In this document: piece after piece, positions 1 through 41,132 of the stretch | Numbering within the stretch: the first letter of the stretch is position 1 | Layout: each line of letters opens with the position of its first letter | From: a virus | Taxonomy: Duplodnaviria > Heunggongvirae > Uroviricota > Caudoviricetes | Direction: 5' to 3' (one strand) | IMG/VR virus record: IMGVR_UViG_3300027782_003987 | Span: 27,069 to 91,068 of that record | Length of the DNA: 64,000 bases | Program-made: the position numbers and the translations under genes | Notes under the pieces: model-generated | The model's input: only the letters and a program-made list of their open reading frames with translations | What the model was told of the DNA's origin: nothing | Databases searched by the model: none

Positions 1-3000
1 AACATTGGTGATATTGTATTTGATAATAATCTCTATGTGGATACATTCATCTACACTCGAGACAATATCAGCACAACTGAGAACATCAGCAAAGGTTATG
101 TGAAACAGTATGCCGATAGAACTGTATATCAAAAGGAGATTGGGTGGCAACGGGCCGCGGTCAAGAGCCAGATTTATCAACAATTTAGTTTTACCTATGC
201 TCCGGTGGCCATCAGCGGTTACATAAATGAAACCACACTCACAGTCACTACTGCTCCTGCCGACGGATCATCCTTGCAGATAGGGCAAGAATTAAGAGGC
301 AAAGGCGTGACCGCAGGCACAGAGATTACTGGACTGATCAGCGGCACAGGTGGAACAGGAACCTACTCAGTAAGCATTTCTCAGACTGTGCTACCCACTG
401 CAATCACAGCAACAACACCATTTATCTTGGATGTGGCTGTTTTACTCAATGGCCCCATACCAAGTATTAAACTTTACGCCACGAGCATTTCACAGAATTA
501 CAGCAGTCAGTTCCAAGATCCAGGAACATATACTATTACCACTTCAGATAATAACACAGTGGTAAGAATCAATACCAATACAGAATTAGTGTATGGTGAC
601 ATAGTAGAAATACTGGCATTGAGTGATCAAGTCAGCAACGTGGGATTTTATCAAGTTCCTATCAACTTGGAAAATAATCCATTGAACGGTAATAGCCCAT
701 ATCTCACACTGGGTACTATCAGAACACATTACGATAGCATCGCACAGAATCTTGTGAATTTGACCGGATCGGTAAATGGTGCAAACAATACCAGAGATCT
801 AGGCAATATCATTCCTTATGGATTGATCATATTGCAACAAAGTTCACCAATGACTCTGGCCGGATATTTCTTACGCGAGCCGGACTACAATATTTTTGCT
901 TCGCTGGAATACAATTCCAGAGAATATCAAAAATTCAAAGCACAGTTTTTGAATCAGGCTGCTGCCGGTGATTATGTAAACATGACCATACCGGACATAC
1001 TCAATGCAGTATTTGATGAAATTAACATCGCCCGCAACAGTTCAAACTCATTCTATTGGTCAGACATGTTGCCTATCGGCACAGTTTACACCGAAACACA
1101 GACCACAGTGACGCCAATCACTACACAGATTTTTGATCTTAACCAGGTATACAATTACACATCAGCTAACTACCAGGCCTTGCTGGTATATCTTAGCGGG
1201 CAATATACCAATGGCGAAAGCCGACTATTGACACGAGATGTTGAATACATAGTCAGCACTGATGCTCCTACGATCACTATCTTGGTGCCATTGACCACCG
1301 GCGATGTTGTTACCATACAAGAATATGAAGCAACCTATGGCAGTTATGTTCCTAACACTCCGACTAAATTGGGATTGTATCCTGCGTATGTTCCTGAAAT
1401 CTTTTTAGATACCACCTATGTAGAACCAATTTTTGTGATCCGAGGACATGATGGTTCGATCACTAGAGCGTTCAACGACTTCCGTGATGCTTTGTTGTTG
1501 GAATACGAGACCAGGATTTATAACAATTTAAAACTTGATGGCAATCCTATACCACTCACCGCAGCAGAAGTGATACCGGGACAATTCCGCACCACTGACT
1601 ATTCTCTGGCGGAGATACAAGACATATTGAATCAAGATTTCTTAGCTTGGGTAGGATGGAACAAACTAGATTACAAAACACAGGATTACATAAAAACCAA
1701 TCAGTTCACTTGGAACTATTCTACAGCGGCAAACAAACTTACTAATAATCAACCACTGGTTGTTGGCGCCTGGCGCGGCATCTACAACTATTTCTACGAC
1801 ACAATCTATCCAACCACTAGACCTTGGGAGATGTTGGGCTTTAGTGAAATTCCTGTGTGGTGGATAAACGAATACGGCCCTCCACCATATACTTCAGGTA
1901 ACTTGGTGCTGTGGGGAGATCTCGCAGCTGGTCTAGTTCGCGATCCAGTAGCAAATTATATACGCCCCGAGTATGTGCGCCCGGGATTGTTAAACGTAAT
2001 ACCTGCAGGCAGCGAAGGTGAATTGCTAAGTCCTATGCAATGTGTGGTAGCCAATTTCAACAGCAACGACTTCCAGAAGAGCTGGGTAGCCGGCGACGAC
2101 GGCCCTGTGGAAAATGCTTGGAGAACTTCAAGCGCATATCCTTTTGCTATCATGAGATTGTTGGCGCTGACCCGCCCCGCAGAATTCTTCTCATTGTTTG
2201 CCGACAGAGATCTTTACAGATTTGACACTGACTACGATCAGTATCTATACAATCAGCGTTATAGATTGGATGCCAATGGTGTGGAAATCTATGGCAACGG
2301 CACCAGCAAAGCCAGCTACATTGATTGGATCGTGGATTTCAATAGACAACGAGGCATCAATTCTACCGATGCTCTCACTGCTGATCTCAAGAATCTCGAC
2401 GTGAGATTGTGCTATAGGATGGCCAGTTTCTCTGCCAAGAATCTATTGGGTGTTTACACAGAACAGAGCAGCCCCAACAGTTCAAATTCCAGTCTGTTGT
2501 TGCCCGACGATAGTTACAACCTGTTATTTTACAAAAATGTGCCATTTGGTGAACTCACATATTCAAGTGTGATTGTTCAAGTAACCGAAACAGGTTGGCA
2601 AGTGTTTGGTTACAATCAGAGTCGCCCGTATTTCAATATTTTACAAAGCCGCGTGAGTGGAACATTGGCTGAAATTTCAGCAGGTGGCAGCACGGTTCGT
2701 GTTCCAGTAGAATACAACAATAACGTGGTGCAAATTCCGTATGCATACGAGTTTATAAATCGCACCCTGGTGGTTGATTTCTTGTTGAGCTATGGTGCTC
2801 TGCTACAACAACAGGGCATGATATTTAAAAATCTGGAAAATGGATATGTATTAGACTGGAACCAGATGGCCAGCGAATTCTTGTATTGGAGCAATCAAGG
2901 CTGGTCACCAGGATCAATTATCAATCTTAACCCAAATGCCAGTCAGTTCTTGGTTGAAAAACCCGGCGCTATTGTAGAAAGTATTGCTGCACAAACTGTA

Positions 3001-6000
3001 GAGAACATGGTACTCACAGCCAATGGTACTCAATACAACGCTAGAGATCTAGTGGTTGATCGAGTCGACAATGTGTTCAGTGTCACAAGCCTCAGTAGAG
3101 AAACCATCAACTTCCTCAATATCAAGTTTACCAGTTATGAAAGCATGATTGTATTGGATAACACCAGTATTTTCAATGACTTGATTTATAATCCCATCAC
3201 AGGGGCCAGACAGAGTCGTATAAGATTGGTAGGATGGAATACCACACAGTGGAACGGTCAACTCAATGCTCCTGGTTTTATTTTGAATCAAGACAACATC
3301 GAGTCTTGGAATCCGTTGAAGAAATATTCTCGCGGTGAGATAGTAAAATGGAAAAATACCTACTACAGCGCGATAGACATAGTCCAACCGTCAAGCAAAT
3401 TTGAAATCACCAATTGGGTTGTTTCTGATTACACACGCATACAGCAAGGCTTATTGCCCAATGCTGCCAACAAGAGCGATCAATTGGCCAACAGTTACAA
3501 TGTTTATAGTGCCAATCTTGAACTTAATCAAGACTTGTTTTCTTATGCATTGATTGGATGGAAGCCAAGACAATACATGGTAAATCTAGAATTAGATTCC
3601 ACCAGCCAAGTCCAATTGTATCAACAATTCTTAGGAACTAAAGGAACTTTACGTGCTGCTGATGTATTCTCATTTGCTGATCTAGGTCGAGGTGTGGCTC
3701 AATATGACATTTACGAAAATTGGGCCATCCTGAGAGGAACTTATGGAGCCAATGCTAACCGTAGTTTCTACGAACTACAACTGAACGAAGCATTGCTCAC
3801 AGCAAACCCTAGCACTATACAAGTGATAGAAACCGGGGAAAGCAGCGAAGCAAACCAAACTGTATTGGTGAGTGATTTGTGGAAGAGCAGTTATAAGATA
3901 ACTTCTCCAAATATCTTAACCACAGAGATCATACCTCTCACTGACACAGCATTACCTAGTGCCGGTTATGTTAATTTCGAAGATGTTGACATCACAGTGT
4001 TTGATCTCACTATTCCCATCAACCTAGATATAAATCTAAATGATATTGTGCTAGGCGCTACCATCTGGGCTGCCAAAATCAATGATTATGATTGGGGTAT
4101 CTACAGGATCAATACTCTGCCCGGATATCTACGATCAGTTACTGCCAACCTTGATGGTACCAGTGTGTTTACATTTACCCATCCACATGGTATTTCAACT
4201 GTTGATGCGACCACTGCAAATCTCACGTTTATAGTAAGATACTTTGCTGATCAGGTTGATGGAACTTATAAAATATTGAATGCTCCAAGTATTACTCAAT
4301 TGGTAGCAGTGTTCTCTTTTGCCAATAGCAACCAAGTCAGCGAAAGTGGTAATGGTATTGGATTTGTGTTACAGACTCAACGTGTTAGCCAAGCCAGCGA
4401 TACAGTTAATTTACCATATGCAAATAGTCTGATTCCGGGCAATAAAGTTTGGGTAGATAATAATGGTCTTGGACTGTGGCAGGTATTAGAAAAGCAAGAG
4501 GTGTTTACCTCGGCAACCGAAGTCAAGGCTCAGGTTCCTATAACCGACAGTTTATTTGGGAATAGTGTAGCACAAAGCAACAATAATCTATACGCCATAG
4601 TTGGAAGTCCTGGATATGGGTCGTCAGTTGGAGTAGTGTATACCTATATACGAACAGCCACCAACCCATTACAAGAAAATTCTATCCTTGAATTAAGTGG
4701 AGTTCCGGACGTATTTCTATTTGGGTGGGCTGTTAGTATAGGTGACCAAATTTGGCAAGTAGTTGGTGCACCGGCCAGTTACAATGACAGTGGATATGCA
4801 GCGGTATATTACAGAAGACCCGGGTCAAATGATTTTACCAACACAGCATTGCTCACAGCGCCTGACACAGATTTAACATTGTCGGCAGAATTTGGTTACA
4901 GCGTGGCGATAAGCCGCGATGAGCATTGGATGTATATTGGTGCTCCAGGAGTTAACAAAGTATTTGCATATGGACTGGTTGAAGTTCAATCTCAAACAGT
5001 ATCATATGTGACCAATGGGACTACCGCAATTTACAACTATAGTGATAGTATTGTAGTCAATTCAGCATATCCCGGACAACTCACTGTGGTATTGAATAAT
5101 CAATTACTGACTTATGGGTCGGACTATACACAGACAGCCACTAACATTGTTCTTAATTCGATTCCGCCTACACAGTTAGGATTGACGATCAGTCGTAGAA
5201 CTTCAGCATCATATACCAGTGATGGATCAACAAATGAATTTTCATTACAGGACTATCTATACACTGCTACTAATATCTATAGCGCGATAGTATTTGTAAA
5301 TGGGGTCACACAACGACCAAACATTGACTACGAATATATATTTGATGACAGCTCATACGGGTATGCAATATCATTTTTTGACGCACCGCCCCCAGATGCT
5401 GACATCATTATAACTGCCAACAGCTATTACACATTAGCTGACACCATAGAATTTACTATTCCGGTCACAGCTTCTATCTCAGGTTCTGTGATGACAGTGA
5501 CTAACACATCAATTGGCAGTCCACTACTTACAAAAGGTATGAAGCTCAGTGGAACTGGCGTGAGTAGCATACCTGAAACTACAATCACTGATTTCATCTC
5601 GGGCACCGGTGGTACCGGAACATACACAGTATACCCTAGCCAGTCTGTAGCATCCACTACTATCACAGCTAGATTGCCCGACACTGCTAGATTTGGCCAC
5701 AGCGTGGCTTGCACCGTTGATGGTCGACAGGTCATGATTGGCACACCCAACGATCGTTATGACAGCATAGCGGATGCCGGTGCAGTATATGTTTACGATC
5801 GTTCAGTGCAGAACATTGTGATAACCAATGCTTCGCAAACATCTTATACAGTGGCCGGTGGTGTATTGGTTGATCCTACTTTTGTGTCTCTAAACAATGA
5901 ATTCTTGGTCAATACCCAGGACAACATAGGTGGCACATTCACCGTCGCAGACGACCAGTATGGTAAACCTGAAGTTATAGTTAATGCGACCCTAGCAGTG

Positions 6001-9000
6001 GGTGATGTTCTACAAATTCAACCCAACACCTTCAATCTATTACAGATCATAAATGCCAACACGCCATCAAATTCAGCATTTGGATCAGCTGTGGATATCT
6101 GCCGATACAGTTGCAGTCTATACACTGGAGCACCCAATGATAGCTCTGTATTACCTTACGCTGGATCAGCGCAACGCAATGTAAATCAAAGCCGTGTGTA
6201 TGGTGTTATCACCAGTTTAAATACCAATCCAAGATTGCAGCCAGGTCAGAGTATAAGAATCAATGATCAAGAAGTGATCATGAGTGTGCTCACTCAATGG
6301 AATATAAACTTAGCCTGGCCGATCAATACTATAGTCCAATATGATCTGGGCGTGTACCGTTCAATCAAAGCAGTCCCGGTAGGAACAGCCATAACTGATA
6401 CCAAATATTGGCAACAAAGCACCTGGGTAGCCAGCCTAGTCAATGATATCAACTCGTCGGGCATTGCAAACATCATCGCCAGTACCGGATTGCCCGGAAC
6501 ATCCACGTTTGGATTGTTAACTGTTAGTGTAAAAAACATATTGGCCGCAGAAGAAGGCAACCGACTCACAGTGCTACCAGGATTGATAGGTGACATGTTC
6601 CAACGTCTGGGATACAACACATTTGTTTATACACAGACTATCACCAGTCCATTGCCTGTGTTGAATGCTGAATTTGGTTCCGCGTTGACCATTGATACAT
6701 CGGCATTGACTTTGACTGTGGGTGCCCCAGCAGGCAATCTATATCGTCCCAATACCTTTGACAAGGGTGACACATATTTCGATGGACGTACAACTACATT
6801 CAGCGGGCCCTTAAATCAAAGTGGTGCCGTGTACACTTATGATTATCTACGTAGTGCAGCTGACTCCGTCAGTAATCCAGGCAAGTTTGTGTTTGGACAG
6901 CAGATTTATGATCAGCGAGTTCGAGAGCTAGATCGATTTGGAACAGCAATAAGTTACACCAATGGACTGTTGTTGATAGGTAGTCCAGGCAGCGATTTGA
7001 ATGATAGCACTCTGTCAGAAATGAATTACGGTCGTGTGGCTGTGTTTAAAAATGCCACCCTCACTCCGGCGTGGACAGTGATACGTGAACAAGTCCCAGT
7101 GGTAAACACAGCACTGATCAATTCAGTTTACAGCTACAGTTCTAGAACTGGAGCAACTACTACATATTTTGATTTTATTGATCCGTTACAAGGTAAGATA
7201 CTAGGTGCTGCTGCTGAGAATCTCAATTACACTGGAGTGGTTGATCCTGCGGCGTATAATGTGGGTCCTATAAACAATCAAGGTCAAAGTTGGCTTGCCG
7301 CGCATGTGGGCGAGCTATGGTGGGATACCAGTCGTGTGAGATTCATTGATCCCAATCAAGACAATATCACATATGCGTCACGCCGCTGGGGCCAGGTATT
7401 TCCTGGATCAAACATAAATGTATATCAATGGATTGGTAGTTCTGTGCCTCCAGGTAATTATACAGGCCCCGGTACCCCTAAAAACATCATAAGTTACAAT
7501 GTTGTTTCCGGAGTCAATGACAGCGGAATGATCGAAACAACGTATTATTTCTGGGTGCAAGGTATCACTACCATAGATACTCGAGCTGGTAAAACTCTAA
7601 GTTCTCAAGGAGTGGCAAGATACATTGCTGATCCTCGTGCATCTGGAATACCTTACGTGGCATTCTTAACTGCCGGTGCTACTGCCATATACAATGCTGG
7701 GTCAAACATATCCGCACAAGATACTATACTCAGTATTGAATATGATCAACAGCTCACAGACAGCAATGTTCACGTTCAGTACAGTTTGGTTCCTCAGAAT
7801 CGTGCTGATGGGTTTCTTCCTGACAATCTGTATCTCAAATTTCAAGACAGTCTGTGCGGGGTAAATTCCACTGGTGCCAAAGTTCCTGATGTCACTCTGA
7901 GTTTGGCTAATCGTTATGGAGTGCAATTTAGTCCGCGTCAGAGCATGTTTGAGGATAGATTCTTAGCTCTGAAGAACTATTTTGGGCGAGCAAATTCGAT
8001 ATTAGCAAAGTTTCCAATCACAGAGATTCGTAGTTTTGCATTGTTGAACAGCAAAGAACCTGAACCTCCAGCAGGAACCGGTGAATGGGACAAGAGAGTT
8101 GCCAATATTGAAGAACTCAGCTATCAGAACTTTGTACAGGTTCCAGTAGGATACCTATATCTAGTGGTTAGTGATTCTGTACAAAACGGCCTTTGGGCGA
8201 TCTATGAGGTCACCACAGCAAAAACATTCGCCACGCTGTTATTGACGAGAGTACAGAATTACGATACTAGCAAATATTGGAATCATATTAACTGGTATCT
8301 TCCTGATTATGATCCTAGCAAACAGATCGTTACTACAGTAGCAGTATACAGTGATCTCAGCAAACTGAGCCTGTATCAAGCACCAGTGGGATCCAGTGTG
8401 CGGGTCACTGCTAATTCACAAAACAAGTGGGAAATATATCTGCGCTTGACTGCTGATAACTGGGAACGTGTAGGACTTCAAGATGGCACCATAGAAATTT
8501 CTTCATTGCTGTGGGATTATAAGGCTGCTGGATTTGGATTTGATTCACAAGTATTTGATAGTCAATACTTTGATCAAGAGCCAGTGATTGAAACTCGACG
8601 TATAATCCAAGCCATCAATCAGGAATTACTGGTTGACGAACTCTTAATCGAGCGCAACCGCGCATTGATGTTGATGTTCAACTTTGTTCTGTCAGAGTTC
8701 TTGGCACCTAACTGGTTAACAAAAACTTCATTGATTGACGTGGATCATACCATACGCGAATTGCTGGCATTCCAAACATATCGCAAAGACAATCAAGATT
8801 TCGTGGTTGATTACATACAAGAAATTAAACCATACCATGTGCAAATACGTGAGTTGAATCTGATCTATAACGGATTAGATGATTATCAAGGCACGTTGAC
8901 AGACTTTGATGTTCCTGCATATTACGATACTAGTGTTATACCCAATCAATTTGTTAGCCCTATACTCACACCTTATGCGGTGAGCACTGCGGTAGGCACA

Positions 9001-12000
9001 GGGACCCCTAGCGATGTCAGTGATACTGCATCTAGTAGCTTGATATGGCAAGATCAACCTTGGAATTTCTGGTATCAGAACTATACTCTTGCTGTGGTGG
9101 GTGCTATAGTAGCCGAGGCCGGATCAGGATACACAGTTGCGCCCGTGGCAACGGTCACCGGTGACTGCGTGAGTCCTGCTGTGATCACAGTTAACATAAA
9201 TGGCTCGGGCAACATAACCGGAGTTACGATCGTTGATCCAGGCATTGGGTATATCACCACAGCAATAATAACATTGAGCGGTGGTAATGGCACTGGCGGG
9301 CAATTGGTAGCCATCATGGCCGGGCCAGGGCAAGGTGAAAATACCGATCCTACCGCAGGAACTACAGGAGAAACACAATACTATAATTTGGTTCGCAGTT
9401 TCAATCTCACCATGAGGTATGATAGATACCAATACGCATCTACCATTGTTGATTGGGAAGCAAACGTGTCATACAACAACGGTACCCTGGTGCGCTATGA
9501 TAACAGAGTATGGGAAGCTAATAGTCCAACGATTCCTGTCACAGCTTCTATAGCAAGTTCAGTGATGACAGTGAGTATCATACCAAATGGTAGTCCAGCA
9601 CTTGCGATAGGTATGATACTCAGTATAACTGGAGTAACCGGCGACCCCACAATCATTGGTTCAATCATTGGTTTTCTCTCGGGCACCGGTGGCGTTGGAA
9701 CATACACAGTGTCACCGGGACAGACCGTGCTAACCACCACTATCACAGCAAGATCCACAACGGTAGAATCTGCTACATTTGATCCTGCATATTGGTTGCT
9801 GGTAAATGCTGGCACTTATTCATACCCGTTAAATCTCAATGTTGCAACTGGATTCCCAGTCAATACTGGATTGAGTGGTGTAGATCGAACCATGGGATTA
9901 TATATTCCATCTGTAAATGAACCAGGATTAGATTTAAATCTGCTGATTGATGGAATAACATATCCGGGTGTGCAAGTGTCTGCACCAACATTTAGCCAGA
10001 ACACCGGATTTGATGTGGGCAATTTTGATATCAACCCGTTTGATAACATATCTTTTGGTCCAGAAGGACGTCCTACTTACGACCCAGGTATATTAGATAC
10101 CATATATGAAAGCAATTTTCTCGATACCTATCTTGGACTACGTGCCACTGACATCAATGTAGTAGGCGGTGAATTCGTTGGACCATACGAAAGTCATGCT
10201 CCCGAAGAGCTAGTTCCTGGTTCAGAGTTTGACACATTAGATTTCCGTGTTTATACCCGCCCAGGATCAGATTGGGATGAAAATGGTCATGGATTCAGCT
10301 GGAAGACCATTAAATGGATATATAACAGCACCACAGCATATACACAGAGTTTTGCCGGCCTTGCGCTTAACCCAGTTCAGATACGTGTGACCAATCAGAC
10401 ACAGGGGCGAGATCTCATACAAGGAATAGCGTATACTGTGGATTGGGTAAATCAGGTTGTGGAAATTATTCCTAGTGTGAGCGCACCTCCAGCTGCCAAC
10501 GGTAACATTCTAGTTGTTAGTTCTTTTGGCATTGGCGGCGGCAATCAGCTCTATAAAAACATTTACAATGGCGCAGATATTTCAAATCCATTGAACATTC
10601 CAGTGGCACGAGTTGAAATTTTTGAGCTAGTGATCTTTGTGAATGGTGTGTTGATAAATGATTACACATATTCCGCAGGATTCAATCGAACTACAAATAT
10701 CGTGTTTGGTAACACTTACACGTCAACAGACGAGATAAATGTCACAGCCATTGGGACCACTAGTGGATCGTTGACATACACTTGGTCCACTCCACAGACA
10801 CAATACTTTGTGAGTTATGGGCAATTAGATTACATGCTGGACAATTCCATGTCCGGAACCAATATCTCTAACTTGGTAGTAGAAGTCAATGGTATTCGCG
10901 CAAGACCTCCTGAAGGTGCGATGTATGTTGCTGACGGTAGTTCGGGATATGCCCTGCCCAATCGCGGCGGATATAGTTTAGCACTAGTAGCAGACAATGA
11001 AGTCCTTGTGTATGTCGACAATGAAAAACTCACATTGGGCAGCGATTATATCGTAGAGCCATATACCGGCAATGACACTAGATATGTAGATTTTGCTGTG
11101 GCTCCTGCTACAGGTTCGGAAGTTTTGATCAGTGTGACCACCAAAGCAGATTACGTGATCATTGACGATGGCAGTAGCATCATGGATAACTATACCTTGG
11201 TATTCCGCACATCTGGTGGTTTCTATCCTCAATATGGTGACATCGTTGGTGTGACATCATGGAATGACACAGCACAACAAAGCATAGTGACATTGTTGTG
11301 GCAAGGACCAGTGATCGAGGGCACAGGAGCAAATGAACCTTTTGATAGCACAAATTTTGATGTAGGCACTGTGACTGGCGAAGCTGGTAGCTTTGACTAT
11401 ACCGCGGAGGTCCAGGTAATTGTAAATGATTTCCAATTGGGCAGAATTATCACTGATCCTACACGTATGTGGGTCACAAAGAATGGTGTTCGCATTTTCT
11501 ACAGTGATGACTATTTGATTGTTGGGGAACAATTGATATTACATGGTCCACCGATTGGAGTGACCGACGTTGTTGTTGCTCAATTGTTTACCGATTCAGT
11601 TGTGCCCGAAGCCATGGAATTCCGTATATTCCAAGACATGCGTGGAATACAAGCTACCTATCGTATGACTCCAAATACCACAACTGTATTAGTTCAACCG
11701 TTGCTGGCCGACCAAGATATCATTTATGTGGACAATGCTGATGCATTAACACAGCCTAATTTGGCAATCAATATCTGGGGAGTGATCACAATCAACGGTG
11801 AGCGCATCATGTATCGCGAGTTGGATACTGCTAACAACACGGTCAGCAGTTTGATGCGCGGAACAGCAGGCACAGCAGTCGCAGACCACGTGAATGGATC
11901 CACAGTCTACAACATAGGAATTGGTAATCTTGCTCCAGTTGAATATCAAGATCGTGTGATCTATACAAATACCCTAGGCGACGGCAGCACTACAACATTC

Positions 12001-12279
12001 TCGGCACCAAACATTGATTTGAGCCAATTGTCTACAAGTTTTGCTGAACAAGCCATATTGGTGTATGTTGCCGGATTGCGTGTGTACACAGGCTATGCTG
12101 TGGATTCTGTAGCACCCGCAACAATCACATTCGATGCGGCGCCCACAGCAGGGTATGAAGTTTCGATACGTGTAAGGCAAGGGTTAGGGTGGTATTACCC
12201 AGGCGATGGCTCAACTAACGGACAAGCATTACAAATAACCCAAACTGACGCCGCAAGGTTCTTCAGAGGACAAAATTAA
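1..12279 (+). CDS. giant virion fibre/adhesin-like structural protein (>4080 aa; 5' end lies outside the window). Contains an FG-GAP beta-propeller region and three internal ~75-aa repeats
   Basis: The listed ORF uses a GTG at 37, but the frame stays open back to nt 1, so the gene is 5'-truncated. Seven or more FG-GAP-like repeats (FGxSVAxxxxxxxIGAPG) span about nt 4555-7000. The module ...FxSGTGG(T/V)GTY(T/S)V...TITA(R)... occurs three times. Composition is Thr/Ser/Asn/Gly-rich. Tail-fibre genes lie downstream. Confidence 0.8.
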   Translation, partial: NIGDIVFDNNLYVDTFIYTRDNISTTENISKGYVKQYADRTVYQKEIGWQRAAVKSQIYQQFSFTYAPVAISGYINETTLTVTTAPADGSSLQIGQELRGKGVTAGTEITGLISGTGGTGTYSVSISQTVLPTAITATTPFILDVAVLLNGPIPSIKLYATSISQNYSSQFQDPGTYTITTSDNNTVVRINTNTELVYGDIVEILALSDQVSNVGFYQVPINLENNPLNGNSPYLTLGTIRTHYDSIAQNLVNLTGSVNGANNTRDLGNIIPYGLIILQQSSPMTLAGYFLREPDYNIFASLEYNSREYQKFKAQFLNQAAAGDYVNMTIPDILNAVFDEINIARNSSNSFYWSDMLPIGTVYTETQTTVTPITTQIFDLNQVYNYTSANYQALLVYLSGQYTNGESRLLTRDVEYIVSTDAPTITILVPLTTGDVVTIQEYEATYGSYVPNTPTKLGLYPAYVPEIFLDTTYVEPIFVIRGHDGSITRAFNDFRDALLLEYETRIYNNLKLDGNPIPLTAAEVIPGQFRTTDYSLAEIQDILNQDFLAWVGWNKLDYKTQDYIKTNQFTWNYSTAANKLTNNQPLVVGAWRGIYNYFYDTIYPTTRPWEMLGFSEIPVWWINEYGPPPYTSGNLVLWGDLAAGLVRDPVANYIRPEYVRPGLLNVIPAGSEGELLSPMQCVVANFNSNDFQKSWVAGDDGPVENAWRTSSAYPFAIMRLLALTRPAEFFSLFADRDLYRFDTDYDQYLYNQRYRLDANGVEIYGNGTSKASYIDWIVDFNRQRGINSTDALTADLKNLDVRLCYRMASFSAKNLLGVYTEQSSPNSSNSSLLLPDDSYNLLFYKNVPFGELTYSSVIVQVTETGWQVFGYNQSRPYFNILQSRVSGTLAEISAGGSTVRVPVEYNNNVVQIPYAYEFINRTLVVDFLLSYGALLQQQGMIFKNLENGYVLDWNQMASEFLYWSNQGWSPGSIINLNPNASQFLVEKPGAIVESIAAQTVENMVLTANGTQYNARDLVVDRVDNVFSVTSLSRETINFLNIKFTSYESMIVLDNTSIFNDLIYNPITGARQSRIRLVGWNTTQWNGQLNAPGFILNQDNIESWNPLKKYSRGEIVKWKNTYYSAIDIVQPSSKFEITNWVVSDYTRIQQGLLPNAANKSDQLANSYNVYSANLELNQDLFSYALIGWKPRQYMVNLELDSTSQVQLYQQFLGTKGTLRAADVFSFADLGRGVAQYDIYENWAILRGTYGANANRSFYELQLNEALLTANPSTIQVIETGESSEANQTVLVSDLWKSSYKITSPNILTTEIIPLTDTALPSAGYVNFEDVDITVFDLTIPINLDINLNDIVLGATIWAAKINDYDWGIYRINTLPGYLRSVTANLDGTSVFTFTHPHGISTVDATTANLTFIVRYFADQVDGTYKILNAPSITQLVAVFSFANSNQVSESGNGIGFVLQTQRVSQASDTVNLPYANSLIPGNKVWVDNNGLGLWQVLEKQEVFTSATEVKAQVPITDSLFGNSVAQSNNNLYAIVGSPGYGSSVGVVYTYIRTATNPLQENSILELSGVPDVFLFGWAVSIGDQIWQVVGAPASYNDSGYAAVYYRRPGSNDFTNTALLTAPDTDLTLSAEFGYSVAISRDEHWMYIGAPGVNKVFAYGLVEVQSQTVSYVTNGTTAIYNYSDSIVVNSAYPGQLTVVLNNQLLTYGSDYTQTATNIVLNSIPPTQLGLTISRRTSASYTSDGSTNEFSLQDYLYTATNIYSAIVFVNGVTQRPNIDYEYIFDDSSYGYAISFFDAPPPDADIIITANSYYTLADTIEFTIPVTASISGSVMTVTNTSIGSPLLTKGMKLSGTGVSSIPETTITDFISGTGGTGTYTVYPSQSVASTTITARLPDTARFGHSVACTVDGRQVMIGTPNDRYDSIADAGAVYVYDRSVQNIVITNASQTSYTVAGGVLVDPTFVSLNNEFLVNTQDNIGGTFTVADDQYGKPEVIVNATLAVGDVLQIQPNTFNLLQIINANTPSNSAFGSAVDICRYSCSLYTGAPNDSSVLPYAGSAQRNVNQSRVYGVITSLNTNPRLQPGQSIRINDQEVIMSVLTQWNINLAWPINTIVQYDLGVYRSIKAVPVGTAITDTKYWQQSTWVASLVNDINSSGIANIIASTGLPGTSTFGLLTVSVKNILAAEEGNRLTVLPGLIGDMFQRLGYNTFVYTQTITSPLPVLNAEFGSALTIDTSALTLTVGAPAGNLYRPNTFDKGDTYFDGRTTTFSGPLNQSGAVYTYDYLRSAADSVSNPGKFVFGQQIYDQRVRELDRFGTAISYTNGLLLIGSPGSDLNDSTLSEMNYGRVAVFKNATLTPAWTVIREQVPVVNTALINSVYSYSSRTGATTTYFDFIDPLQGKILGAAAENLNYTGVVDPAAYNVGPINNQGQSWLAAHVGELWWDTSRVRFIDPNQDNITYASRRWGQVFPGSNINVYQWIGSSVPPGNYTGPGTPKNIISYNVVSGVNDSGMIETTYYFWVQGITTIDTRAGKTLSSQGVARYIADPRASGIPYVAFLTAGATAIYNAGSNISAQDTILSIEYDQQLTDSNVHVQYSLVPQNRADGFLPDNLYLKFQDSLCGVNSTGAKVPDVTLSLANRYGVQFSPRQSMFEDRFLALKNYFGRANSILAKFPITEIRSFALLNSKEPEPPAGTGEWDKRVANIEELSYQNFVQVPVGYLYLVVSDSVQNGLWAIYEVTTAKTFATLLLTRVQNYDTSKYWNHINWYLPDYDPSKQIVTTVAVYSDLSKLSLYQAPVGSSVRVTANSQNKWEIYLRLTADNWERVGLQDGTIEISSLLWDYKAAGFGFDSQVFDSQYFDQEPVIETRRIIQAINQELLVDELLIERNRALMLMFNFVLSEFLAPNWLTKTSLIDVDHTIRELLAFQTYRKDNQDFVVDYIQEIKPYHVQIRELNLIYNGLDDYQGTLTDFDVPAYYDTSVIPNQFVSPILTPYAVSTAVGTGTPSDVSDTASSSLIWQDQPWNFWYQNYTLAVVGAIVAEAGSGYTVAPVATVTGDCVSPAVITVNINGSGNITGVTIVDPGIGYITTAIITLSGGNGTGGQLVAIMAGPGQGENTDPTAGTTGETQYYNLVRSFNLTMRYDRYQYASTIVDWEANVSYNNGTLVRYDNRVWEANSPTIPVTASIASSVMTVSIIPNGSPALAIGMILSITGVTGDPTIIGSIIGFLSGTGGVGTYTVSPGQTVLTTTITARSTTVESATFDPAYWLLVNAGTYSYPLNLNVATGFPVNTGLSGVDRTMGLYIPSVNEPGLDLNLLIDGITYPGVQVSAPTFSQNTGFDVGNFDINPFDNISFGPEGRPTYDPGILDTIYESNFLDTYLGLRATDINVVGGEFVGPYESHAPEELVPGSEFDTLDFRVYTRPGSDWDENGHGFSWKTIKWIYNSTTAYTQSFAGLALNPVQIRVTNQTQGRDLIQGIAYTVDWVNQVVEIIPSVSAPPAANGNILVVSSFGIGGGNQLYKNIYNGADISNPLNIPVARVEIFELVIFVNGVLINDYTYSAGFNRTTNIVFGNTYTSTDEINVTAIGTTSGSLTYTWSTPQTQYFVSYGQLDYMLDNSMSGTNISNLVVEVNGIRARPPEGAMYVADGSSGYALPNRGGYSLALVADNEVLVYVDNEKLTLGSDYIVEPYTGNDTRYVDFAVAPATGSEVLISVTTKADYVIIDDGSSIMDNYTLVFRTSGGFYPQYGDIVGVTSWNDTAQQSIVTLLWQGPVIEGTGANEPFDSTNFDVGTVTGEAGSFDYTAEVQVIVNDFQLGRIITDPTRMWVTKNGVRIFYSDDYLIVGEQLILHGPPIGVTDVVVAQLFTDSVVPEAMEFRIFQDMRGIQATYRMTPNTTTVLVQPLLADQDIIYVDNADALTQPNLAINIWGVITINGERIMYRELDTANNTVSSLMRGTAGTAVADHVNGSTVYNIGIGNLAPVEYQDRVIYTNTLGDGSTTTFSAPNIDLSQLSTSFAEQAILVYVAGLRVYTGYAVDSVAPATITFDAAPTAGYEVSIRVRQGLGWYYPGDGSTNGQALQITQTDAARFFRGQN
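232..430 (+). repeat. internal protein repeat copy 1 (TLTVTTAPADGSS...ISGTGGTGTYSVSISQTVLPTAITA)
   Basis: Seen directly in the translation; approximate coordinates. Confidence 0.6.
5461..5690 (+). repeat. internal repeat copy 2 (PVTASISGSVMTVTNTSIGSPLL...FISGTGGTGTYTVYPSQSVASTTITAR)
   Basis: Similarity to copy 3 is visible at both DNA and protein level (for example ccggtcacagcttctat...gtgatgacagtga). Confidence 0.7.
9538..9770 (+). repeat. internal repeat copy 3 (PVTASIASSVMTVSIIPNGSPAL...FLSGTGGVGTYTVSPGQTVLTTTITAR)
   Basis: DNA and protein similarity to copy 2; approximate coordinates. Confidence 0.7.
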
Positions 12280-12291: not shown

Positions 12292-12438
12292 ATGCAGCAA
12301 AAACAGCAGATTCAACCACAGCCGCCCAAGCCAAAGCCCGTTACTCGTCCTGATGAACGCGGTGCTATCGCGGTTTCGAGCTTTTTAAAGATCTCGGATC
12401 CAGAAACTAAAAAAGTATTTGTGGAGACACGAGCATGA
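12292..12438 (+). CDS. small hypothetical protein (48 aa, Gln/Pro/Lys-rich N-terminus)
   Basis: ATG at 12292 follows an AAGG...AAAAT RBS-like stretch immediately after the giant ORF stop. Its stop overlaps the ATG of the next gene (ATGATG coupling). Not in the ORF track because it is under 60 aa. Confidence 0.35.
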   Translation: MQQKQQIQPQPPKPKPVTRPDERGAIAVSSFLKISDPETKKVFVETRA

Positions 12439-13046
12439 TGATACCTATTCAAATTCAAGGATTTGTAAAGATCTTTGATCCTGTGAGCGGTGAAGTATTT
12501 GTGGACAAAAAAAATGCAATTCACTATGAAAACATGAGCGTGGCACTGGCTCAAACTTTGAGCAATAGAACGCTGGCGCAAGGCGGCGGCTATATCTATG
12601 CCATGGCATTTGGTAATGGTGGTAGTTCTGTGGATCCTACTGGGGTGATTACCTATTTGCCACCTAACACCACAGGTGCCAACGCCGATCTTTACAATCA
12701 AACCTATGCCAAAGTAGTGGACGATAACTCAGCAGCAGACACAGATATCACTAACAATTATATGCAAGTGTTACACACTAGTGGGCAAGTGTATACAGAC
12801 ATCCTAGTGAGTTGTTTGCTGGACTATGGCGAACCGCCAGAGCAGCAAGCATTTGATAATAGCAGCAATTTCAATGGTGAATTTGTGTTTGATGAACTAG
12901 GGTTAAAGGCAGTGAATGGAGATACAACCAATTTACGGTTATTGACCCATGTGATTTTCCACCCTGTACAGAAGAGTTTGAACCGCCAGATACAGATTGA
13001 TTATACTGTGCGTATACAGACCTTAACTAATCTAAGTACAACATAA
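12435..13046 (+). CDS. hypothetical virion or tail-fibre-associated protein
   Basis: 203-aa ORF, translationally coupled to its neighbours, in a structural gene context. Confidence 0.6.
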   Translation: MMIPIQIQGFVKIFDPVSGEVFVDKKNAIHYENMSVALAQTLSNRTLAQGGGYIYAMAFGNGGSSVDPTGVITYLPPNTTGANADLYNQTYAKVVDDNSAADTDITNNYMQVLHTSGQVYTDILVSCLLDYGEPPEQQAFDNSSNFNGEFVFDELGLKAVNGDTTNLRLLTHVIFHPVQKSLNRQIQIDYTVRIQTLTNLSTT

Positions 13047-13098: not shown

Positions 13099-14514
13099 AT
13101 GTCATATACAATTACTCTTACCGATGGTCAGATTTTCGATACCATTCCAGATGGCACCATCAATACCGCGTCGAGCATGACCCTGGTAGGTAAAAACTAC
13201 GCCGGTTACGGACAATTTATCAACGACGACATTATTCGTTTGTTGGAAAATGGTTCTAACACCACTGCACCCGGAGCGCCGCTCACAGGTCAACTTTGGT
13301 GGGATATCACAACCGGAACCATGAAAGTCTATAACGGCACAGCATTTAAAGTTATCTCAGGTGCCACTGCTTCTAGCACCGCTCCATCTGGCGCTGTTAG
13401 TGTAGCAGGTGATTTATGGTATGATACTGTAAATGCTCAACTTAATGTTTATACTGGTGCCGCCTGGATTTTAGTAGGACCGGCTTTCTCTGGCAACACA
13501 GGGGTAAGTGGTGCTATTGTTACCACAATCACAGATACCAATGCAGTAAGCCATGTAGCTGTGGAAATGTATGTTCAGGATTCTGTTATTGGTATCTTCA
13601 GCAAAGATGCTGCTTATACGCCTAACACAGCACCAGCAGGTGGTGGTTGGACCGGAAGCAAACAAGTCCAACCTGGACTAACAATGTCTGGATCAGTGGG
13701 GAATGTTTCATACCTTCTGCAGGGCACAGCTAACAATTCTAGCTTCCTAAACGGAATTGCATCTTCAGGATTTGTACAAACTACAACCAATCAGACCATG
13801 ACAGGTACGTTGGGTATCCTTAACAATACCGGTCTTTCAGTGGGTCTTAATTCCGATGCTCGAATAAGTGTTACTGGAACTGATGTTTACATGCGTAACC
13901 AGACCAGCAATGGTAATTTGTTGATCCAGATCAACCAGGGTGGTGTTCCTACTACCGTGATGACTTTCTCTGGATCAAATGGTAGGACTACCATTGCTGG
14001 AACTACTATTATTAACACAGCCGGTGGCGACACTGCTATTGTTAATGGTGCAGGCAATGCCGTGGGTAACATTGGATCTAGTTCTAGTTATTTCAACACA
14101 GTATTTGCACAGGCTACTACAGCATTGTATGCTGACGTGGCAGAACGTTTTGCATCTGATGAGATTTATGAACCAGGCACCGTGGTTGAATTGGGTGGAT
14201 CTGCAGAGATCACTCGAGTTCGGCATGATGCCAGCGAAACAGTATTTGGAGTGATCTCCACACGTCCGGCTTTCACTATGAATGGTGGCGCAGGTGATAA
14301 TGATACGCATCCTCCGGTAGCTATGACGGGACGTGTCCCGGTTAAAGTAGCAGGCATTGTGAACAAAGGTGATCGATTGATTTCCGCAGGTGATGGCCTA
14401 GCTCGTGCTGCACAGCCCGGCGAAGCTACTTCGTTTAATGTGATTGGTCGTGCGTTAACTAGCAAGACTACTGCCGAGGTAGGCACAGTCGAAGCTATAG
14501 TAACGATTAAGTAA
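13099..14514 (+). CDS. tail fibre protein with a conserved C-terminal tip domain
   Basis: Gly/Thr/Ser-rich beta-strand-like repeats. The C-terminal block ADVAERFASDEIYEPGTVVELGG...GRVPVKVAG resembles conserved phage tail-fibre C-terminal (intramolecular-chaperone-like) domains; this domain assignment is from memory and was not verified. Confidence 0.65.
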   Translation: MSYTITLTDGQIFDTIPDGTINTASSMTLVGKNYAGYGQFINDDIIRLLENGSNTTAPGAPLTGQLWWDITTGTMKVYNGTAFKVISGATASSTAPSGAVSVAGDLWYDTVNAQLNVYTGAAWILVGPAFSGNTGVSGAIVTTITDTNAVSHVAVEMYVQDSVIGIFSKDAAYTPNTAPAGGGWTGSKQVQPGLTMSGSVGNVSYLLQGTANNSSFLNGIASSGFVQTTTNQTMTGTLGILNNTGLSVGLNSDARISVTGTDVYMRNQTSNGNLLIQINQGGVPTTVMTFSGSNGRTTIAGTTIINTAGGDTAIVNGAGNAVGNIGSSSSYFNTVFAQATTALYADVAERFASDEIYEPGTVVELGGSAEITRVRHDASETVFGVISTRPAFTMNGGAGDNDTHPPVAMTGRVPVKVAGIVNKGDRLISAGDGLARAAQPGEATSFNVIGRALTSKTTAEVGTVEAIVTIK

Positions 14515-17793: not shown

Positions 17794-18706
17794 TATAGCA
17801 GATCTAGACTGCGTTTACCTAAGTTATGATGAACCTGCTAAGGAAGAGTTTTGGGTCAAGATCCGTAACATGGTGCCTTGGGCCACAAGGGTAGATGGTG
17901 TTAAAGGAAGTGATGCAGCACACAAAGCAGCCGCAGCGGCCAGCACTACTGAGCGTTTCATCTTGATAGATGGCGACAATCTTCCTGATCCTGAATTCTT
18001 TAATCAAACACTAAAATTCCCCACCGAAGAACATGAAAAAGCAGTGTTCCGATGGAGAGCTAGAAATCACATCAATGGCTTGATGTATGGCAATGGTGGT
18101 TTAAGTTCTTGGACTAAGACCTATGTGAAAGATATGCACACACATGAGAATACAGATGGGCGCACAGAAACTCAAGTAGAGTTTTGTTTTGATCCATTAT
18201 ATTGGGCTATGCACGACTGTTATAGCACTACACACCCAAATGGATCTGCTTTCCAAGCCTGGCGTGCTGGATTCCGTGAAGGTGTGAAGATGTGCCTGGA
18301 TCGTGGTCGCAGACCCACAGTGAGTGAGTTTCAGACTCTGGTTCATCAACGTAATCTTGATAATCTTACTATTTGGCATAATGTGGGCGCAGATGTGGAT
18401 TACGGATATTGGGCCATTGCAGGTGCAAGGCAGGGCACATACATGACCATGCTCACCAATTGGGATTATTTGCAGGTACAGAACTTTGATGCATTAGCCG
18501 AGCTATGGAAAACTGTAGAGGATGATCAGCCCGAACATATCATTAACAGCATTGCTAATGAATTGCATACTCAGCTGGATCTCCCCATGCACATGCTGAC
18601 AGTAGACGCTAGTAAGTTTTTCAAACATCATTACAAATCAAACTGGCGTAATCGTGATGTTATGGTTCGAGAAATAGACATGGTCCATCAACAAGAAGCA
18701 CGGTAA
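17774..18706 (+). CDS. hypothetical protein
   Basis: ATG at 17774 has an upstream AAAAGAAA RBS-like stretch. The ORF is listed from 17735. Confidence 0.5.
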   Translation: MSLKQIDIADLDCVYLSYDEPAKEEFWVKIRNMVPWATRVDGVKGSDAAHKAAAAASTTERFILIDGDNLPDPEFFNQTLKFPTEEHEKAVFRWRARNHINGLMYGNGGLSSWTKTYVKDMHTHENTDGRTETQVEFCFDPLYWAMHDCYSTTHPNGSAFQAWRAGFREGVKMCLDRGRRPTVSEFQTLVHQRNLDNLTIWHNVGADVDYGYWAIAGARQGTYMTMLTNWDYLQVQNFDALAELWKTVEDDQPEHIINSIANELHTQLDLPMHMLTVDASKFFKHHYKSNWRNRDVMVREIDMVHQQEAR

Positions 18707-19761
18707 TGAACTGGAACTGTGCAGCGATTGATCATGGAATCACTTTTCATGAAAATGGTCAAATAGCACCATGCTGTTTAATCTCGTCTACCTACAGTAA
18801 AAACATCTCAGAAATTGATAACAATCCGTTTGCAGATTTAAAAACATCGACACCTCCACTGGTTTGTAAAGTTTGCGTTGATGCAGAAAATAACAATATA
18901 CCAAGTTATCGCCAAGGATTCAATCAACGAAAAAGCGATCACCCTGGATTTCAGTTTGTCGATATAAGAAATACAAATTTGTGTAACTTTAAATGCAGAA
19001 CTTGTGGACCTCAGAACAGCAATCTCTGGGCCAAGGAACTCGGAGAAACTATTCCTATCAGACATTTTCCATTGTCTAATTACAAACAATATATTGTTAA
19101 TCAAAGTGTGCAGAGCATTTATTATACCGGGGGCGAACCGTTAATCAACAGTGAGCATTGGGATTTGCTAGAAGAATTAACAGTTGCCGGAATGAGTAAA
19201 AATATCACATTAAATTACAATTCCAATATGTCGGTATTAAAATTCAAAGACAAAAATATTTTTGACGTTTGGAAAAATTTTAAATCAGTACAAATTATGG
19301 CCAGCATTGATGCGATCGGAGAAAAGTTTGATCATATACGGTCCGGCGGCAAGTGGGATGTAGCAAATGAAAATATCCGTGCTTTAAAAAACCACAATAT
19401 AACCTTAGCCATTGGGACCACAGTAAGCATTTTGAATTTGTGGTTTTTAGAAGAATTATTGATGTTTTTTAATGATCAGAACATTTCAGTTGAGCTATCT
19501 GATTTGCATTATCCTCCCTACTTTTCATTATCGGCTATACCCGATGAACTTAAAAATTTAGCATTGAGCTGTGTTAATAAAATTGAAAAAATATATCACA
19601 ATAAAAACAAATGTGATTACATGAGATTACAGATAAACAATAATAGTAAGCAACATCTATTCAAAGATGCCGTTATGAAAACTCTATCACTGGATAAAAT
19701 AAGAGGAGAAAAATTATTTGATTTTCTTCCTTTCCGAGATCATGCACTACCGCTAATATGA
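18706..19761 (+). CDS. radical SAM enzyme, subfamily A (N-terminal twitch/SPASM-like Cys domain followed by the rSAM core)
   Basis: CNFKCRTC (CxxxCxxC) and YYTGGEPL (GGE SAM-binding motif). N-terminal APCCLIS...CKVCVDAE cysteine motif. Confidence 0.8.
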   Translation: MNWNCAAIDHGITFHENGQIAPCCLISSTYSKNISEIDNNPFADLKTSTPPLVCKVCVDAENNNIPSYRQGFNQRKSDHPGFQFVDIRNTNLCNFKCRTCGPQNSNLWAKELGETIPIRHFPLSNYKQYIVNQSVQSIYYTGGEPLINSEHWDLLEELTVAGMSKNITLNYNSNMSVLKFKDKNIFDVWKNFKSVQIMASIDAIGEKFDHIRSGGKWDVANENIRALKNHNITLAIGTTVSILNLWFLEELLMFFNDQNISVELSDLHYPPYFSLSAIPDELKNLALSCVNKIEKIYHNKNKCDYMRLQINNNSKQHLFKDAVMKTLSLDKIRGEKLFDFLPFRDHALPLI

Positions 19762-21131
19762 ATAATAAAAGTTTTTTTCAAAACTCGGCTGAGCAAATGA
19801 AAGATCAACTAGGACCTGCACTATGCTTGGCTAAATGGAAACAGGTCAGCTTACATCTTACCACAGGATTAAATAACAGTTGCTACCATCCGCCCTTGCA
19901 TCCGATAGACTCTGCTGCGATTGCTGCTAATCCAGCAGCTCTACATAACACCGAGCATAAAAAAGCACAGCGTAAGATAATGCTACAGCACGAACGTCCT
20001 AGTGAATGTAGTTACTGCTGGAACATGGAAGATCTCGGCAAGCTGAGTGACCGGCATTACAGATCAGGAGAACCATGGGCTGCTGTAGATTTTAAAAAGA
20101 TAAAAAACTCAACTGGAGATGAAGAAGATGTCATACCGTCATATGTGGAAGTCAATTTCAACAATGCCTGCAACCTTAAATGCAGCTATTGCAGCCCGCA
20201 GTTCAGCTCTAGCTGGCAACAAGAAGTTGACCGGCATGGGGCATTTCCTACTTTGGTTCCTCATAACGCTGCTGAGCATTTTAGCGGCAGCCGCAGGCCT
20301 ATCCCTGCCCGTGATCACAACCCTTATGTAGAAGCATTTTGGGCATGGTGGCCCACGCTGTATCCTGAGCTCAAACACTTTCGTATGACCGGCGGCGAAC
20401 CACTGATGGATCGAAACACCTATCGAGTGTTTGACTATGTGTTAGAACACCCCAAGAGCGATCTACATCTAGCAGTCACATCAAACTTCAGCGTAGAGCC
20501 CGAGCTATCAACAAAATACTTTGACTATGTGAAACGCTTATGCGACACTGATATCGAACATTTCATGCAGTATGTTAGCCTTGACTCGGGCACAGGGCCA
20601 CAAGCAGAATACATCCGACATGGATTAGATTTTGACCGCTTAACGCACAATGTGGAAACATATCTCAGAGATATTCCTTATCGTAATAGTCTTACGTTTA
20701 TTGTAACTATGAACAATCTTAGTGTGACAGGGTTCCTGCCATTGATGCAGTGGATATTAGATCTTCGACGCCGACACAGTCACACATATCAGCGTGTGTG
20801 GTTTGATACCCCTGTGTTGAGACAACCTGCATGGCAAAGCCTACAGACCTTGCCTGAGAGCTATGCTGCGAAACTAGAACAAGCAAGAGATTTTATGTTG
20901 GCCAATCTCGAAACTGCAGAAGACCCGTTCCACGGATTCAAGGACTATGAGGTGCAACGACTTGAGCGCGACATTGCCTGGATGCGATCGGTACCAAATG
21001 TAAGCACACGAGACTTGGCAGATTTTTATAGATTCTTCACAGAACACGATCGACGCAGAGGCACAGACTTTGAAAAAACATTCCCAGAGATGATCACCTG
21101 GTGGAAACAGTGTGGTCTGCATGCTAGGTAA
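19758..21131 (+). CDS. radical SAM enzyme, subfamily B (N-terminal AKW...SC-HPP...CSYCW twitch-like domain followed by the rSAM core)
   Basis: CNLKCSYC and RMTGGEPLM motifs. Paralogous to 23398..24729 and 26438..27838. Confidence 0.8.
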   Translation: MNNKSFFQNSAEQMKDQLGPALCLAKWKQVSLHLTTGLNNSCYHPPLHPIDSAAIAANPAALHNTEHKKAQRKIMLQHERPSECSYCWNMEDLGKLSDRHYRSGEPWAAVDFKKIKNSTGDEEDVIPSYVEVNFNNACNLKCSYCSPQFSSSWQQEVDRHGAFPTLVPHNAAEHFSGSRRPIPARDHNPYVEAFWAWWPTLYPELKHFRMTGGEPLMDRNTYRVFDYVLEHPKSDLHLAVTSNFSVEPELSTKYFDYVKRLCDTDIEHFMQYVSLDSGTGPQAEYIRHGLDFDRLTHNVETYLRDIPYRNSLTFIVTMNNLSVTGFLPLMQWILDLRRRHSHTYQRVWFDTPVLRQPAWQSLQTLPESYAAKLEQARDFMLANLETAEDPFHGFKDYEVQRLERDIAWMRSVPNVSTRDLADFYRFFTEHDRRRGTDFEKTFPEMITWWKQCGLHAR

Positions 21132-29040: not shown

Positions 29041-29041
29041 T

Positions 29042-32463: not shown

Positions 32464-32561
32464 ATTGGATTAAAAGAATGTGGGCCAAGATCACACTAGA
32501 AATTCGCTATCGTAAAAAATTGCGAGAACTTCGTAAACGAGATCCGTTCATCTACAAATGA
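32460..32561 (+). CDS. small basic hypothetical peptide (33 aa, MNWIKRMWAKITLEIRYRKKLRELRKRDPFIYK)
   Basis: ATGA overlaps with both flanking genes, filling the gap between 32463 and 32558. Under 60 aa, so absent from the ORF track. Confidence 0.3.
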   Translation: MNWIKRMWAKITLEIRYRKKLRELRKRDPFIYK

Positions 32562-40863: not shown

Positions 40864-41132
40864 CTTCCCTCCCATTTCAGTTTGTAGAACATATACACCT
40901 GTTCGTCCATCACGGTAAATTTCCCCTCGTAATGATCCCAATGGCGACCATTTAGATATTGCCCACGCGGTCCGTAAGTGTTCCGTAACCACTGATGCAC
41001 TTCGTCCTTGAGATGTCCTTGTATCCTATACACCAGTATAGGCACAAATTCTGTGCCGTTCCATACCAGTTTTCTTACAGTGCGGTATGGGACTTCTACT
41101 GCGTCTATGTATTCAATTTGTGGTGCGAACAT
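40860..41132 (-). CDS. hypothetical protein
   Basis: ATGA coupling to the epimerase gene. Confidence 0.45.
   Translation of the reverse strand: MFAPQIEYIDAVEVPYRTVRKLVWNGTEFVPILVYRIQGHLKDEVHQWLRNTYGPRGQYLNGRHWDHYEGKFTVMDEQVYMFYKLKWEGR

Follow-up and report, generated by a model that had tools for sequence, protein, structure and literature searches.

In phage T4, phage P2 and the type VI secretion system (T6SS), the slot that follows the gp6-like baseplate wedge gene holds gene 7, gene I and tssG, respectively, and the products of these genes pair with two chains of gp6, gpJ or TssF. The T4 and P2 gene orders around gene 7 and gene I were checked and agree with this arrangement. In a group of jumbo phages, the wedge genes adjoin genes for proteins of 380-540 kDa, which are among the largest jumbo-phage virion parts; this adjacency holds in every phage of the group examined here, and none of the proteins has an assigned role. 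An example is gp245 of phage phAPEC6 (382 kDa), which adjoins a 131-kDa wedge protein, is represented by 17 peptides recovered from virions by mass spectrometry, and was assigned no function in the paper that describes it (PMC7247149); the PA5oct paper likewise assigns none to gp355. The present analysis concerns a giant gene of this type that occupies positions 1-12279 (+) of a 64,000-nucleotide (nt) stretch of viral DNA, here called the window, corresponding to positions 27,069 to 91,068 of IMG/VR record IMGVR_UViG_3300027782_003987. Its product is probably a baseplate-associated structural protein at the gp7 position, belonging to the peripheral baseplate rather than forming a classical fibre. 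The protein family itself is already known, and the new elements are a propeller insert and a mobile family of small beta-barrels.

Frame 1 of the window is free of stops from nt 1 to a TAA at 12277-12279, which amounts to 4,092 codons. An earlier annotation made from the letters of the window (the original prediction) had described a 5'-truncated open reading frame (ORF) of more than 4,080 amino acids (aa), counted from the first GTG at nt 37. The truncation is borne out by a second IMG/VR contig, L001 (IMGVR_UViG_3300009159_008227; 4,947 bp), which was located by searching IMG/VR with the first 40 bases of the window, is identical to window positions 1-617 at 617 of 617 bases, and adds 4,330 bases upstream. 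On this contig the frame shows no stop right before nt 1 and reaches back a further 790 codons (L001 1961-4330) to an ATG sharing bases with the TAA that ends the gene before it; a GGAG sits upstream of this ATG, and an in-frame stop lies 11 codons before it. The N-terminal motif thus reached, MA..R[ST]VDFLP[EP]IFQT, also begins about 20 metagenomic relatives. The complete gene measures 14.65 kb (4,882 codons) and encodes a protein of 4,882 aa (536.5 kDa; isoelectric point 4.4) without a membrane-like segment, of which the window covers the last 84%.

The giant protein belongs to PHROG 10938, a family named 'virion structural protein' with a profile of 3,324 positions, which matches the part encoded in the window with E 3.7e-206 and the N-terminal 790 aa with E 5.3e-66. 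Profile positions 20-393 are covered by the N-terminal part and positions 565-1463 by window aa 183-1097. A tblastn search with the protein matches 90 phage records, all of them jumbo myoviruses at 25-30% identity, including PA5oct-like Pseudomonas phages, Agrobacterium phage Atu_ph07, Salicola phage SCTP-2 and PBECO4/Rak2-like coliphages. Megablast of the giant gene against 50,697 phage records returns no match, which marks the phage itself as new. The gene comes from an uncultured jumbo myovirus with relatives among the Rak2-like, PA5oct, Atu_ph07 and SCTP-2 phages, and the protein represents a family that is known but uncharacterised. At 4,882 aa it is the largest among the compared PHROG 10938 proteins, which include PA5oct gp355 (3,857 aa), Atu_ph07 gp180 (4,449 aa), SCTP-2 gp140 (3,807 aa) and PBECO4 gp538 (3,333 aa). 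An NCBIfam search of the giant protein finds nothing, and sequence searches of the PDB with the protein, its N-terminal profile and the profile of the barrel module described below yield nothing meaningful, the sole match being alpha-latrotoxin at E 0.5.

BLASTP against these four homologues defines four conserved blocks, at full-length aa ~1-147, 434-808, 983-2130 and 3136-3820, separated by slots of variable length. Conservation is highest in the N-terminal block, at 29-36% identity against 22-33% in the others. The largest, block C (577-4020, +; full-length aa ~983-2130), is common to PA5oct gp355, Atu_ph07 gp180, PBECO4 gp538 and SCTP-2 gp140 with E 1e-58 to 1e-126 and coincides with PHROG 10938 positions 565-1463; block D (7036-9090, +; full-length aa ~3136-3820) aligns to all four with E 1e-36 to 1e-47. 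A further C-terminal block (11608-11904, +; full-length aa 4660-4758) is shared, among the four, only with the C-terminus of the PA5oct homologue (gp355 aa 3710-3804; 34% identity, E 9e-6). The giant protein resembles the PHROG 10938 proteins of jumbo phages in its four collinear blocks, N-terminal motif and gene neighbours, but differs from them in its sequence, which is only 23-36% identical within blocks, and in an FG-GAP propeller and 65-aa barrels that are found here and not in the four homologues compared. This absence of blades and barrels applies to the PA5oct, Atu_ph07, PBECO4 and SCTP-2 homologues; phAPEC6 gp245 was not scanned. The build of the family, as displayed by the giant protein, is that of a conserved scaffold interrupted by slots in which entire folded domains can be lodged.

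Directly behind block D lies a glycine-rich segment of 'GxGY' repeats (9091-9330, +; window aa ~3031-3110). It resembles repeats of Atu_ph07 gp180 (aa 2500-2665), to which full-length aa 3822-3913 align with E 1e-4 to 3e-6 by BLASTP (aligned range 2502-2665). The same segment weakly matches phrog_460, named head closure Hc2, with E 6e-4. As a separate observation on the family, the homologues P0031-P0092 retrieved from a large protein collection are all at most ~1,220 aa long, even on contigs of 46-74 kb. Giant genes thus seem to be present in that collection only as fragments, which hides proteins of the PHROG 10938 type from routine searches.

The position of the gene within a baseplate cassette carries the proposed role. 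In PA5oct, Atu_ph07 and PBECO4 the order is gp5-like gene, gp25-like gene, gp6-like gene, giant gene, a gene for a protein of ~200 aa, and adaptor-bearing fibre genes, and the gp6-like wedge gene before the giant homologue encodes 1,150-1,320 aa. The ORF upstream of the giant gene on L001 matches the baseplate wedge family phrog_10646 with E 3e-102. An orthologous contig, L008 (JGI contig Ga0133913_10001106; 61.7 kb), is collinear with the giant protein at 71-75% identity over at least 4,305 aa and presents a GPW_gp25 gene (124 aa), a gp6-like gene (1,156 aa; L008 6531-10001) and then the giant gene. On the other side, the window continues with a conserved 203-aa partner gene (12435-13046, +; phrog_11259, E 2e-70), which directly follows the giant gene in related jumbo phages as well; its product is 50% identical to Atu_ph07 gp177, 41% to SCTP-2 gp139 and 37% to PA5oct gp357, the last annotated as detected by mass spectrometry. 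Next comes a fibre-like protein of 471 aa with an N-terminal adaptor (13099-14514, +; phrog_14394). The adaptor is shared with PA5oct gp358 (annotated as T4 gp10-like), PA5oct gp359 and Atu_ph07 gp176 (BLASTP E 1e-11 to 5e-21 over the N-terminal 80-140 aa), and a faint similarity to the intramolecular chaperone domain Peptidase_G2 is seen at the C-terminus (20.3 bits, under the cut-off of 25).

The original prediction had placed the giant protein in the virion, and this placement is backed by mass spectrometry of two homologues: PA5oct gp355 is annotated as virion-detected by electrospray ionization tandem mass spectrometry, and peptides of phAPEC6 gp245 were recovered from virions as described above (PMC7247149). 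The wedge-slot role is proposed because the giant gene follows the gp6-like gene, the position of T4 gene 7, P2 gene I and tssG. According to this model, one giant chain per wedge would take the place of gp7 in T4, gpI in P2 or TssG in the T6SS. Docking onto the gp6-like pair would fall to the best-conserved N-terminal ~150 residues, and the conserved blocks would make up the outer part of the baseplate, to which the ~200-aa partner and the adaptor-bearing fibres could attach. Propeller, carbohydrate-binding-like motif and barrels, as inserts that evolve fast and are exchangeable, would point outward and touch the host surface, probably polysaccharide. Two concrete predictions follow from this model: that the N-terminal ~150 residues anchor on the gp6-like pair, and that the propeller and barrels are outward-facing.

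Compared with T4 gp7, P2 gpI and TssG, the giant protein has the same gene position, the same stop/start overlap with the gp6-like gene, and peripheral baseplate and fibre genes after it. It differs in size, being 4.7 times as large as T4 gp7 and 28 times as large as P2 gpI, and shows no detectable sequence or fold similarity to any of the three. There is a size precedent for giant families of the gp7 type, as the core of T4 gp7 matches PHROG profiles of 3,231, 4,179 and 6,136 positions. Several results weigh against a gp7-type role. Pfam and NCBIfam give no link between the giant protein and gp7, gpI or TssG; hhalign comparison of N-terminal profiles built from 5 and 24 sequences with T4 gp7 and P2 gpI gives a probability below 1%; and no PHROG is common to the giant protein and T4 gp7, a permissive PHROG scan for a bridging family also being negative. 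No fold similarity to gp7 is detectable in the structural model of the N-terminus, a comparison limited by the low confidence of the first ~120 residues. The virion evidence, moreover, comes from homologues that are 25-29% identical to the giant protein. A literature search for baseplate structures of the Rak2/PA5oct type found nothing relevant. Full-length aa 168-246 (L001 2462-2698) weakly match phrog_677, a T4 gp9-like family named 'baseplate wedge tail fiber protein connector', with E 0.0076.

The largest slot of the giant protein, the hypervariable one between blocks C and D, is filled by the FG-GAP region (4537-7095, +; window aa ~1513-2365). The assignment to this family, first suggested by the original prediction, survives a profile search, with Pfam FG-GAP_2 (PF14312) scoring 38.4 bits against a curated cut-off of 23. 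Units of the form FG.[STA][VILA]...G[AST]P occur exactly seven times, at window aa 1519, 1574, 1631, 1898, 2027, 2225 and 2313 (motif starts at nt 4555, 4720, 4891, 5692, 6079, 6673 and 6937), and nowhere else in the 4,092 residues; the three strings singled out earlier are blades 3, 4 and 7. A hidden Markov model (HMM) built from the units recovers the same number of domains, with independent E-values (i-E) of 1e-16 to 1e-25 and a next best value of 0.8. Blades 1-3 adjoin one another; after blades 3, 4 and 5 the chain is extended by ~210, ~70 and ~140 residues, respectively. The repeat count and family assignment fit a predicted seven-bladed propeller, as seven repeats suffice to close one.

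The blade HMM detects no blades in the PA5oct, Atu_ph07, PBECO4 and SCTP-2 homologues, and tblastn of the region against the 50,697 phage records gives no match. The region is kept in L008 and in the metagenomic fragments P0001-P0005, of which P0001, P0002, P0004 and P0005 carry a precomputed PF14312 assignment. In other phages the interval between blocks C and D measures ~120 aa (PBECO4), 290 aa (PA5oct), 440 aa (SCTP-2) and 1,500 aa (Atu_ph07), compared with 1,000 aa here. An ancestral origin of the propeller in the family, considered because block D seemed to begin inside blade 7, was rejected: the homologues are bladeless, and homology resumes after blade 7. A literature search on FG-GAP domains in phage tails or baseplates found nothing relevant. 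The closest analogy is the propeller of the integrin alpha subunit, which likewise has seven FG...GAP repeats and, in some alpha chains, an I-domain inserted between propeller blades. The similarity extends to a Pfam score above the cut-off and to a domain placed between two blades. The predicted propeller described here differs in being an internal insert in a phage structural protein, and what lies between its blades 3 and 4 is a ~100-aa domain together with a beta-barrel rather than a von Willebrand A domain. The ~100-aa domain (5077-5370, +) has a diverged second copy in the C-terminal variable region (10624-10956, +); self-BLASTP aligns window aa 1693-1790 with 3542-3652 at 31% identity, a weak match (E 3e-4).

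The beta-barrel belongs to a repeated module that occurs three times in the protein. Copy 1 lies at 211-411 (+; window aa 71-137, full-length aa 861-927; i-E 1.5e-22), copy 2 at 5464-5670 (+; window aa 1822-1890; i-E 1.8e-21; DNA repeats D1/D2), nested between blades 3 and 4, and copy 3 at 9538-9750 (+; window aa 3180-3250; i-E 2.7e-18), also as a nested insertion. Three copies near aa 70, 1810 and 3170 had been noted in the original prediction, and both self-comparison and an HMM confirm them. The predicted length of 75 aa had to be corrected, as the iteratively built HMM (71 instances) defines a domain of ~65 aa. The idea of roughly even spacing does not hold either, the distances being 5,259 and 4,080 nt and resulting from independent insertions of a widespread mobile domain. 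By BLASTP, copies 2 and 3 share 60% identity (E 8e-16), and copy 1 matches copy 3 with E 1e-8 and copy 2 with E 6e-4. The predicted identity of copies 2 and 3 at the DNA level is real: they are 75% identical over 207 nt, versus 58 +/- 3.6% in codon shuffles, and copy 1 is at background. An AlphaFold2 model of copy 2 shows a small beta-barrel with a mean confidence score (pLDDT) of 95.

All three copies sit outside the conserved blocks, and their distribution points to mobility. Copy 1 is missing in most relatives, whose alignments step from full-length aa 856 to 930, and is present only in the closest ones (P0031, P0033, P0043, P0046 and P0075). In L008, the orthologue with 75% identity, a clean gap stands in place of copy 3. 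The inserts of the giant protein are thus exchangeable: the slot between blocks C and D ranges from ~120 to 1,500 aa in length, and module copies 1 and 3 are presence/absence polymorphisms. Copy 3 splits a motif resembling the carbohydrate-binding module CBM5/12 (chitin-binding type 3; 9454-9810, +) into halves at ~9454-9537 and ~9751-9810. Because of this split, only the N-terminal half of the Pfam CBM_5_12 profile matches, with 24.6 bits against a cut-off of 26.2. In L008 the motif is uninterrupted and reads VRYDNRVW.ANS...ATFDPA.WLLVNA, and the annotation of a PA5oct-like homologue names a chitin-binding type-3 protein. Copy 3 most likely arose by copying within the gene, judging from copy 2 being its nearest relative at the DNA level.

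Beyond this gene, the module is widespread. When 1.84 billion representative proteins were searched exhaustively with its profile, 8,525 clusters matched at E<=1e-3 and 4,437 of these at E<=1e-10, and a single protein carried as many as 27 copies. A word-indexed search started from the 77-aa module by itself gave no match, and by sequence the module resembles no solved structure. It is covered by phrog_38233 ('tail fiber protein') and phrog_21413, and it constitutes a large domain family without a Pfam model, which enters and leaves phage surface proteins over short evolutionary distances. Such mobility matters for host-range prediction and for the annotation of metagenomic phages. The Pfam domains that accompany the module in 57 carriers are almost all virion-surface parts, namely tail collar, XM1 minor capsid, cement, sheath, Baseplate_J, baseplate wedge, pectate-lyase spike and collagen domains. 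Comparable, though not demonstrably homologous, are gp7 of the Arthrobacter phage Bridgette (PDB 8ECI chain 2) and other small EF-Tu-domain-II-like barrels inserted in phage surface proteins. Bridgette gp7 is a free-standing 124-aa capsid decoration protein that forms dimers around pentons (bioRxiv 10.1101/2022.09.09.507160). The module differs from it in being a repeat or insert, arranged in tandem or nested in loops. A tentative proposal, which may well prove wrong, is that the barrel is an undescribed 'plug-in' domain of phage virion surfaces, very widespread with its at least 8,500 clusters (50% identity level) and as many as 27 copies in one protein, that spreads by copy-and-insert into surface loops, the copy-2-like insertion that interrupts the CBM5/12 motif being an example, and that, together with the propeller and its nested insert, makes the protein at the gp7 position an integrin-like modular platform for host recognition. 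If so, jumbo phages of this lineage would read the host surface with the baseplate itself, and not only with fibres.

The same domain make-up raises the question of whether the giant protein is instead a tail fibre or fibrous adhesin, a long appendage hanging from the baseplate and outside the wedge itself. The N-terminal model is a string of beta-sandwich domains with weak structural similarity to, among others, bacterial adhesins and an S-layer protein, and the propeller, CBM5/12-like motif and surface barrels would suit binding. The module itself matches a PHROG named after tail fibres, and phAPEC6 has unusual fibres with unassigned proteins (PMC7247149). The gene, however, sits between the gp6-like wedge gene, whose stop its start overlaps, and the adaptor-bearing fibre genes. 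The giant protein contains no fibre-type Pfam domain (Phage_T7_tail reaches only E 0.9) and no collar, fibre-repeat or Peptidase_S74/G2 match, and its self-comparison lacks shaft periodicity, whereas the downstream 471-aa protein does show fibre features. Furthermore, a seven-blade propeller is a globular fold of a single chain that is hard to fit into an intertwined trimeric shaft, and both termini are conserved (the C-terminal block only relative to PA5oct), suggesting that both ends are anchored. A fibre or fibrous adhesin is accordingly a rather doubtful description. Of the 'virion fibre or adhesin' put forward in the original prediction, the virion location stands and an adhesin-like domain make-up is plausible, but the slot in the baseplate cassette, the globular domains and the lack of a fibre domain, repeat or chaperone speak against a fibre.

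A second alternative concerns the radical S-adenosylmethionine (SAM) genes downstream. At 18706-34033 (+), some nine radical SAM paralogues, of which several contain SPASM domains, precede a carbamoyltransferase gene, and the giant protein or part of it had been regarded as a plausible substrate, which would make the cluster a modification system for baseplate proteins. These genes lie on the same strand as the giant gene, and a similar arrangement exists in Atu_ph07, where three or more radical SAM genes follow the giant gene at a distance of ~5 kb. The operon nevertheless starts 6.4 kb and six genes downstream, and the giant genes of PA5oct, PBECO4 and SCTP-2 have no radical SAM genes nearby. 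The substrates of SPASM enzymes are usually short peptides that carry leader sequences, and nothing of this type was identified in the giant protein. In addition, further radical SAM ORFs are found far away on the other strand (55981-57024 and 62967-63959, both -). The substrate claim thus finds no support, and such a relationship is very unlikely.

In the comparison with L008, synonymous sites are saturated, with proportions of synonymous differences (pS) of 0.66-0.80, and the corresponding nonsynonymous values (pN) are 0.12-0.30 across the protein. Blocks C and D show pN of 0.12-0.13, and the propeller, its inserts and module copy 2 show 0.18-0.30. No part of the giant protein escapes purifying selection, and change in the inserted parts proceeds at about twice the rate of the conserved blocks. 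In L008 the region is called as three ORFs (812, 320 and 3,588+ aa) owing to two frameshifts, at L008 ~12415-12433 and ~13332. A real gene fission in L008 was rejected as unproven, since the alignment is collinear across two simple frameshifts. Although this three-ORF call would suit a spurious long frame (from chimeric assembly, decay into a pseudogene, or sequencing errors that joined several genes), the chance of an artefact is negligible given 4,092 codons without a stop in DNA of 43% GC, the identical overlap with the independent contig L001, an alignment to L008 that stays collinear past the two frameshifts, single-gene homologues of 3,333-4,449 aa in four isolated phages, and strong purifying selection throughout.

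The remainder of the window contains several features on the opposite strand. An aminotransferase gene and a nucleoside diphosphate (NDP)-sugar epimerase gene stand side by side, with an HNH endonuclease gene further on (38816-40992 and 43500-44822, both -); the pair suggests sugar modification. An array of tRNA genes typical of jumbo phages extends over 55488-60004 (-), with 12 genes found by Rfam and 14 by ARAGORN, one of the ARAGORN calls being on the plus strand, overlapping two others and probably false. The phage also encodes a permuted, two-piece transfer-messenger RNA (tmRNA) at 54138-54548 (-), which scores 105 bits with the Rfam model beta_tmRNA (gathering threshold 84) and 113 bits with tmRNA_permuted. 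Its tag is read by ARAGORN as AKPLNANASNDEIFALAA, and the betaproteobacterial type of the tmRNA hints at the host group.

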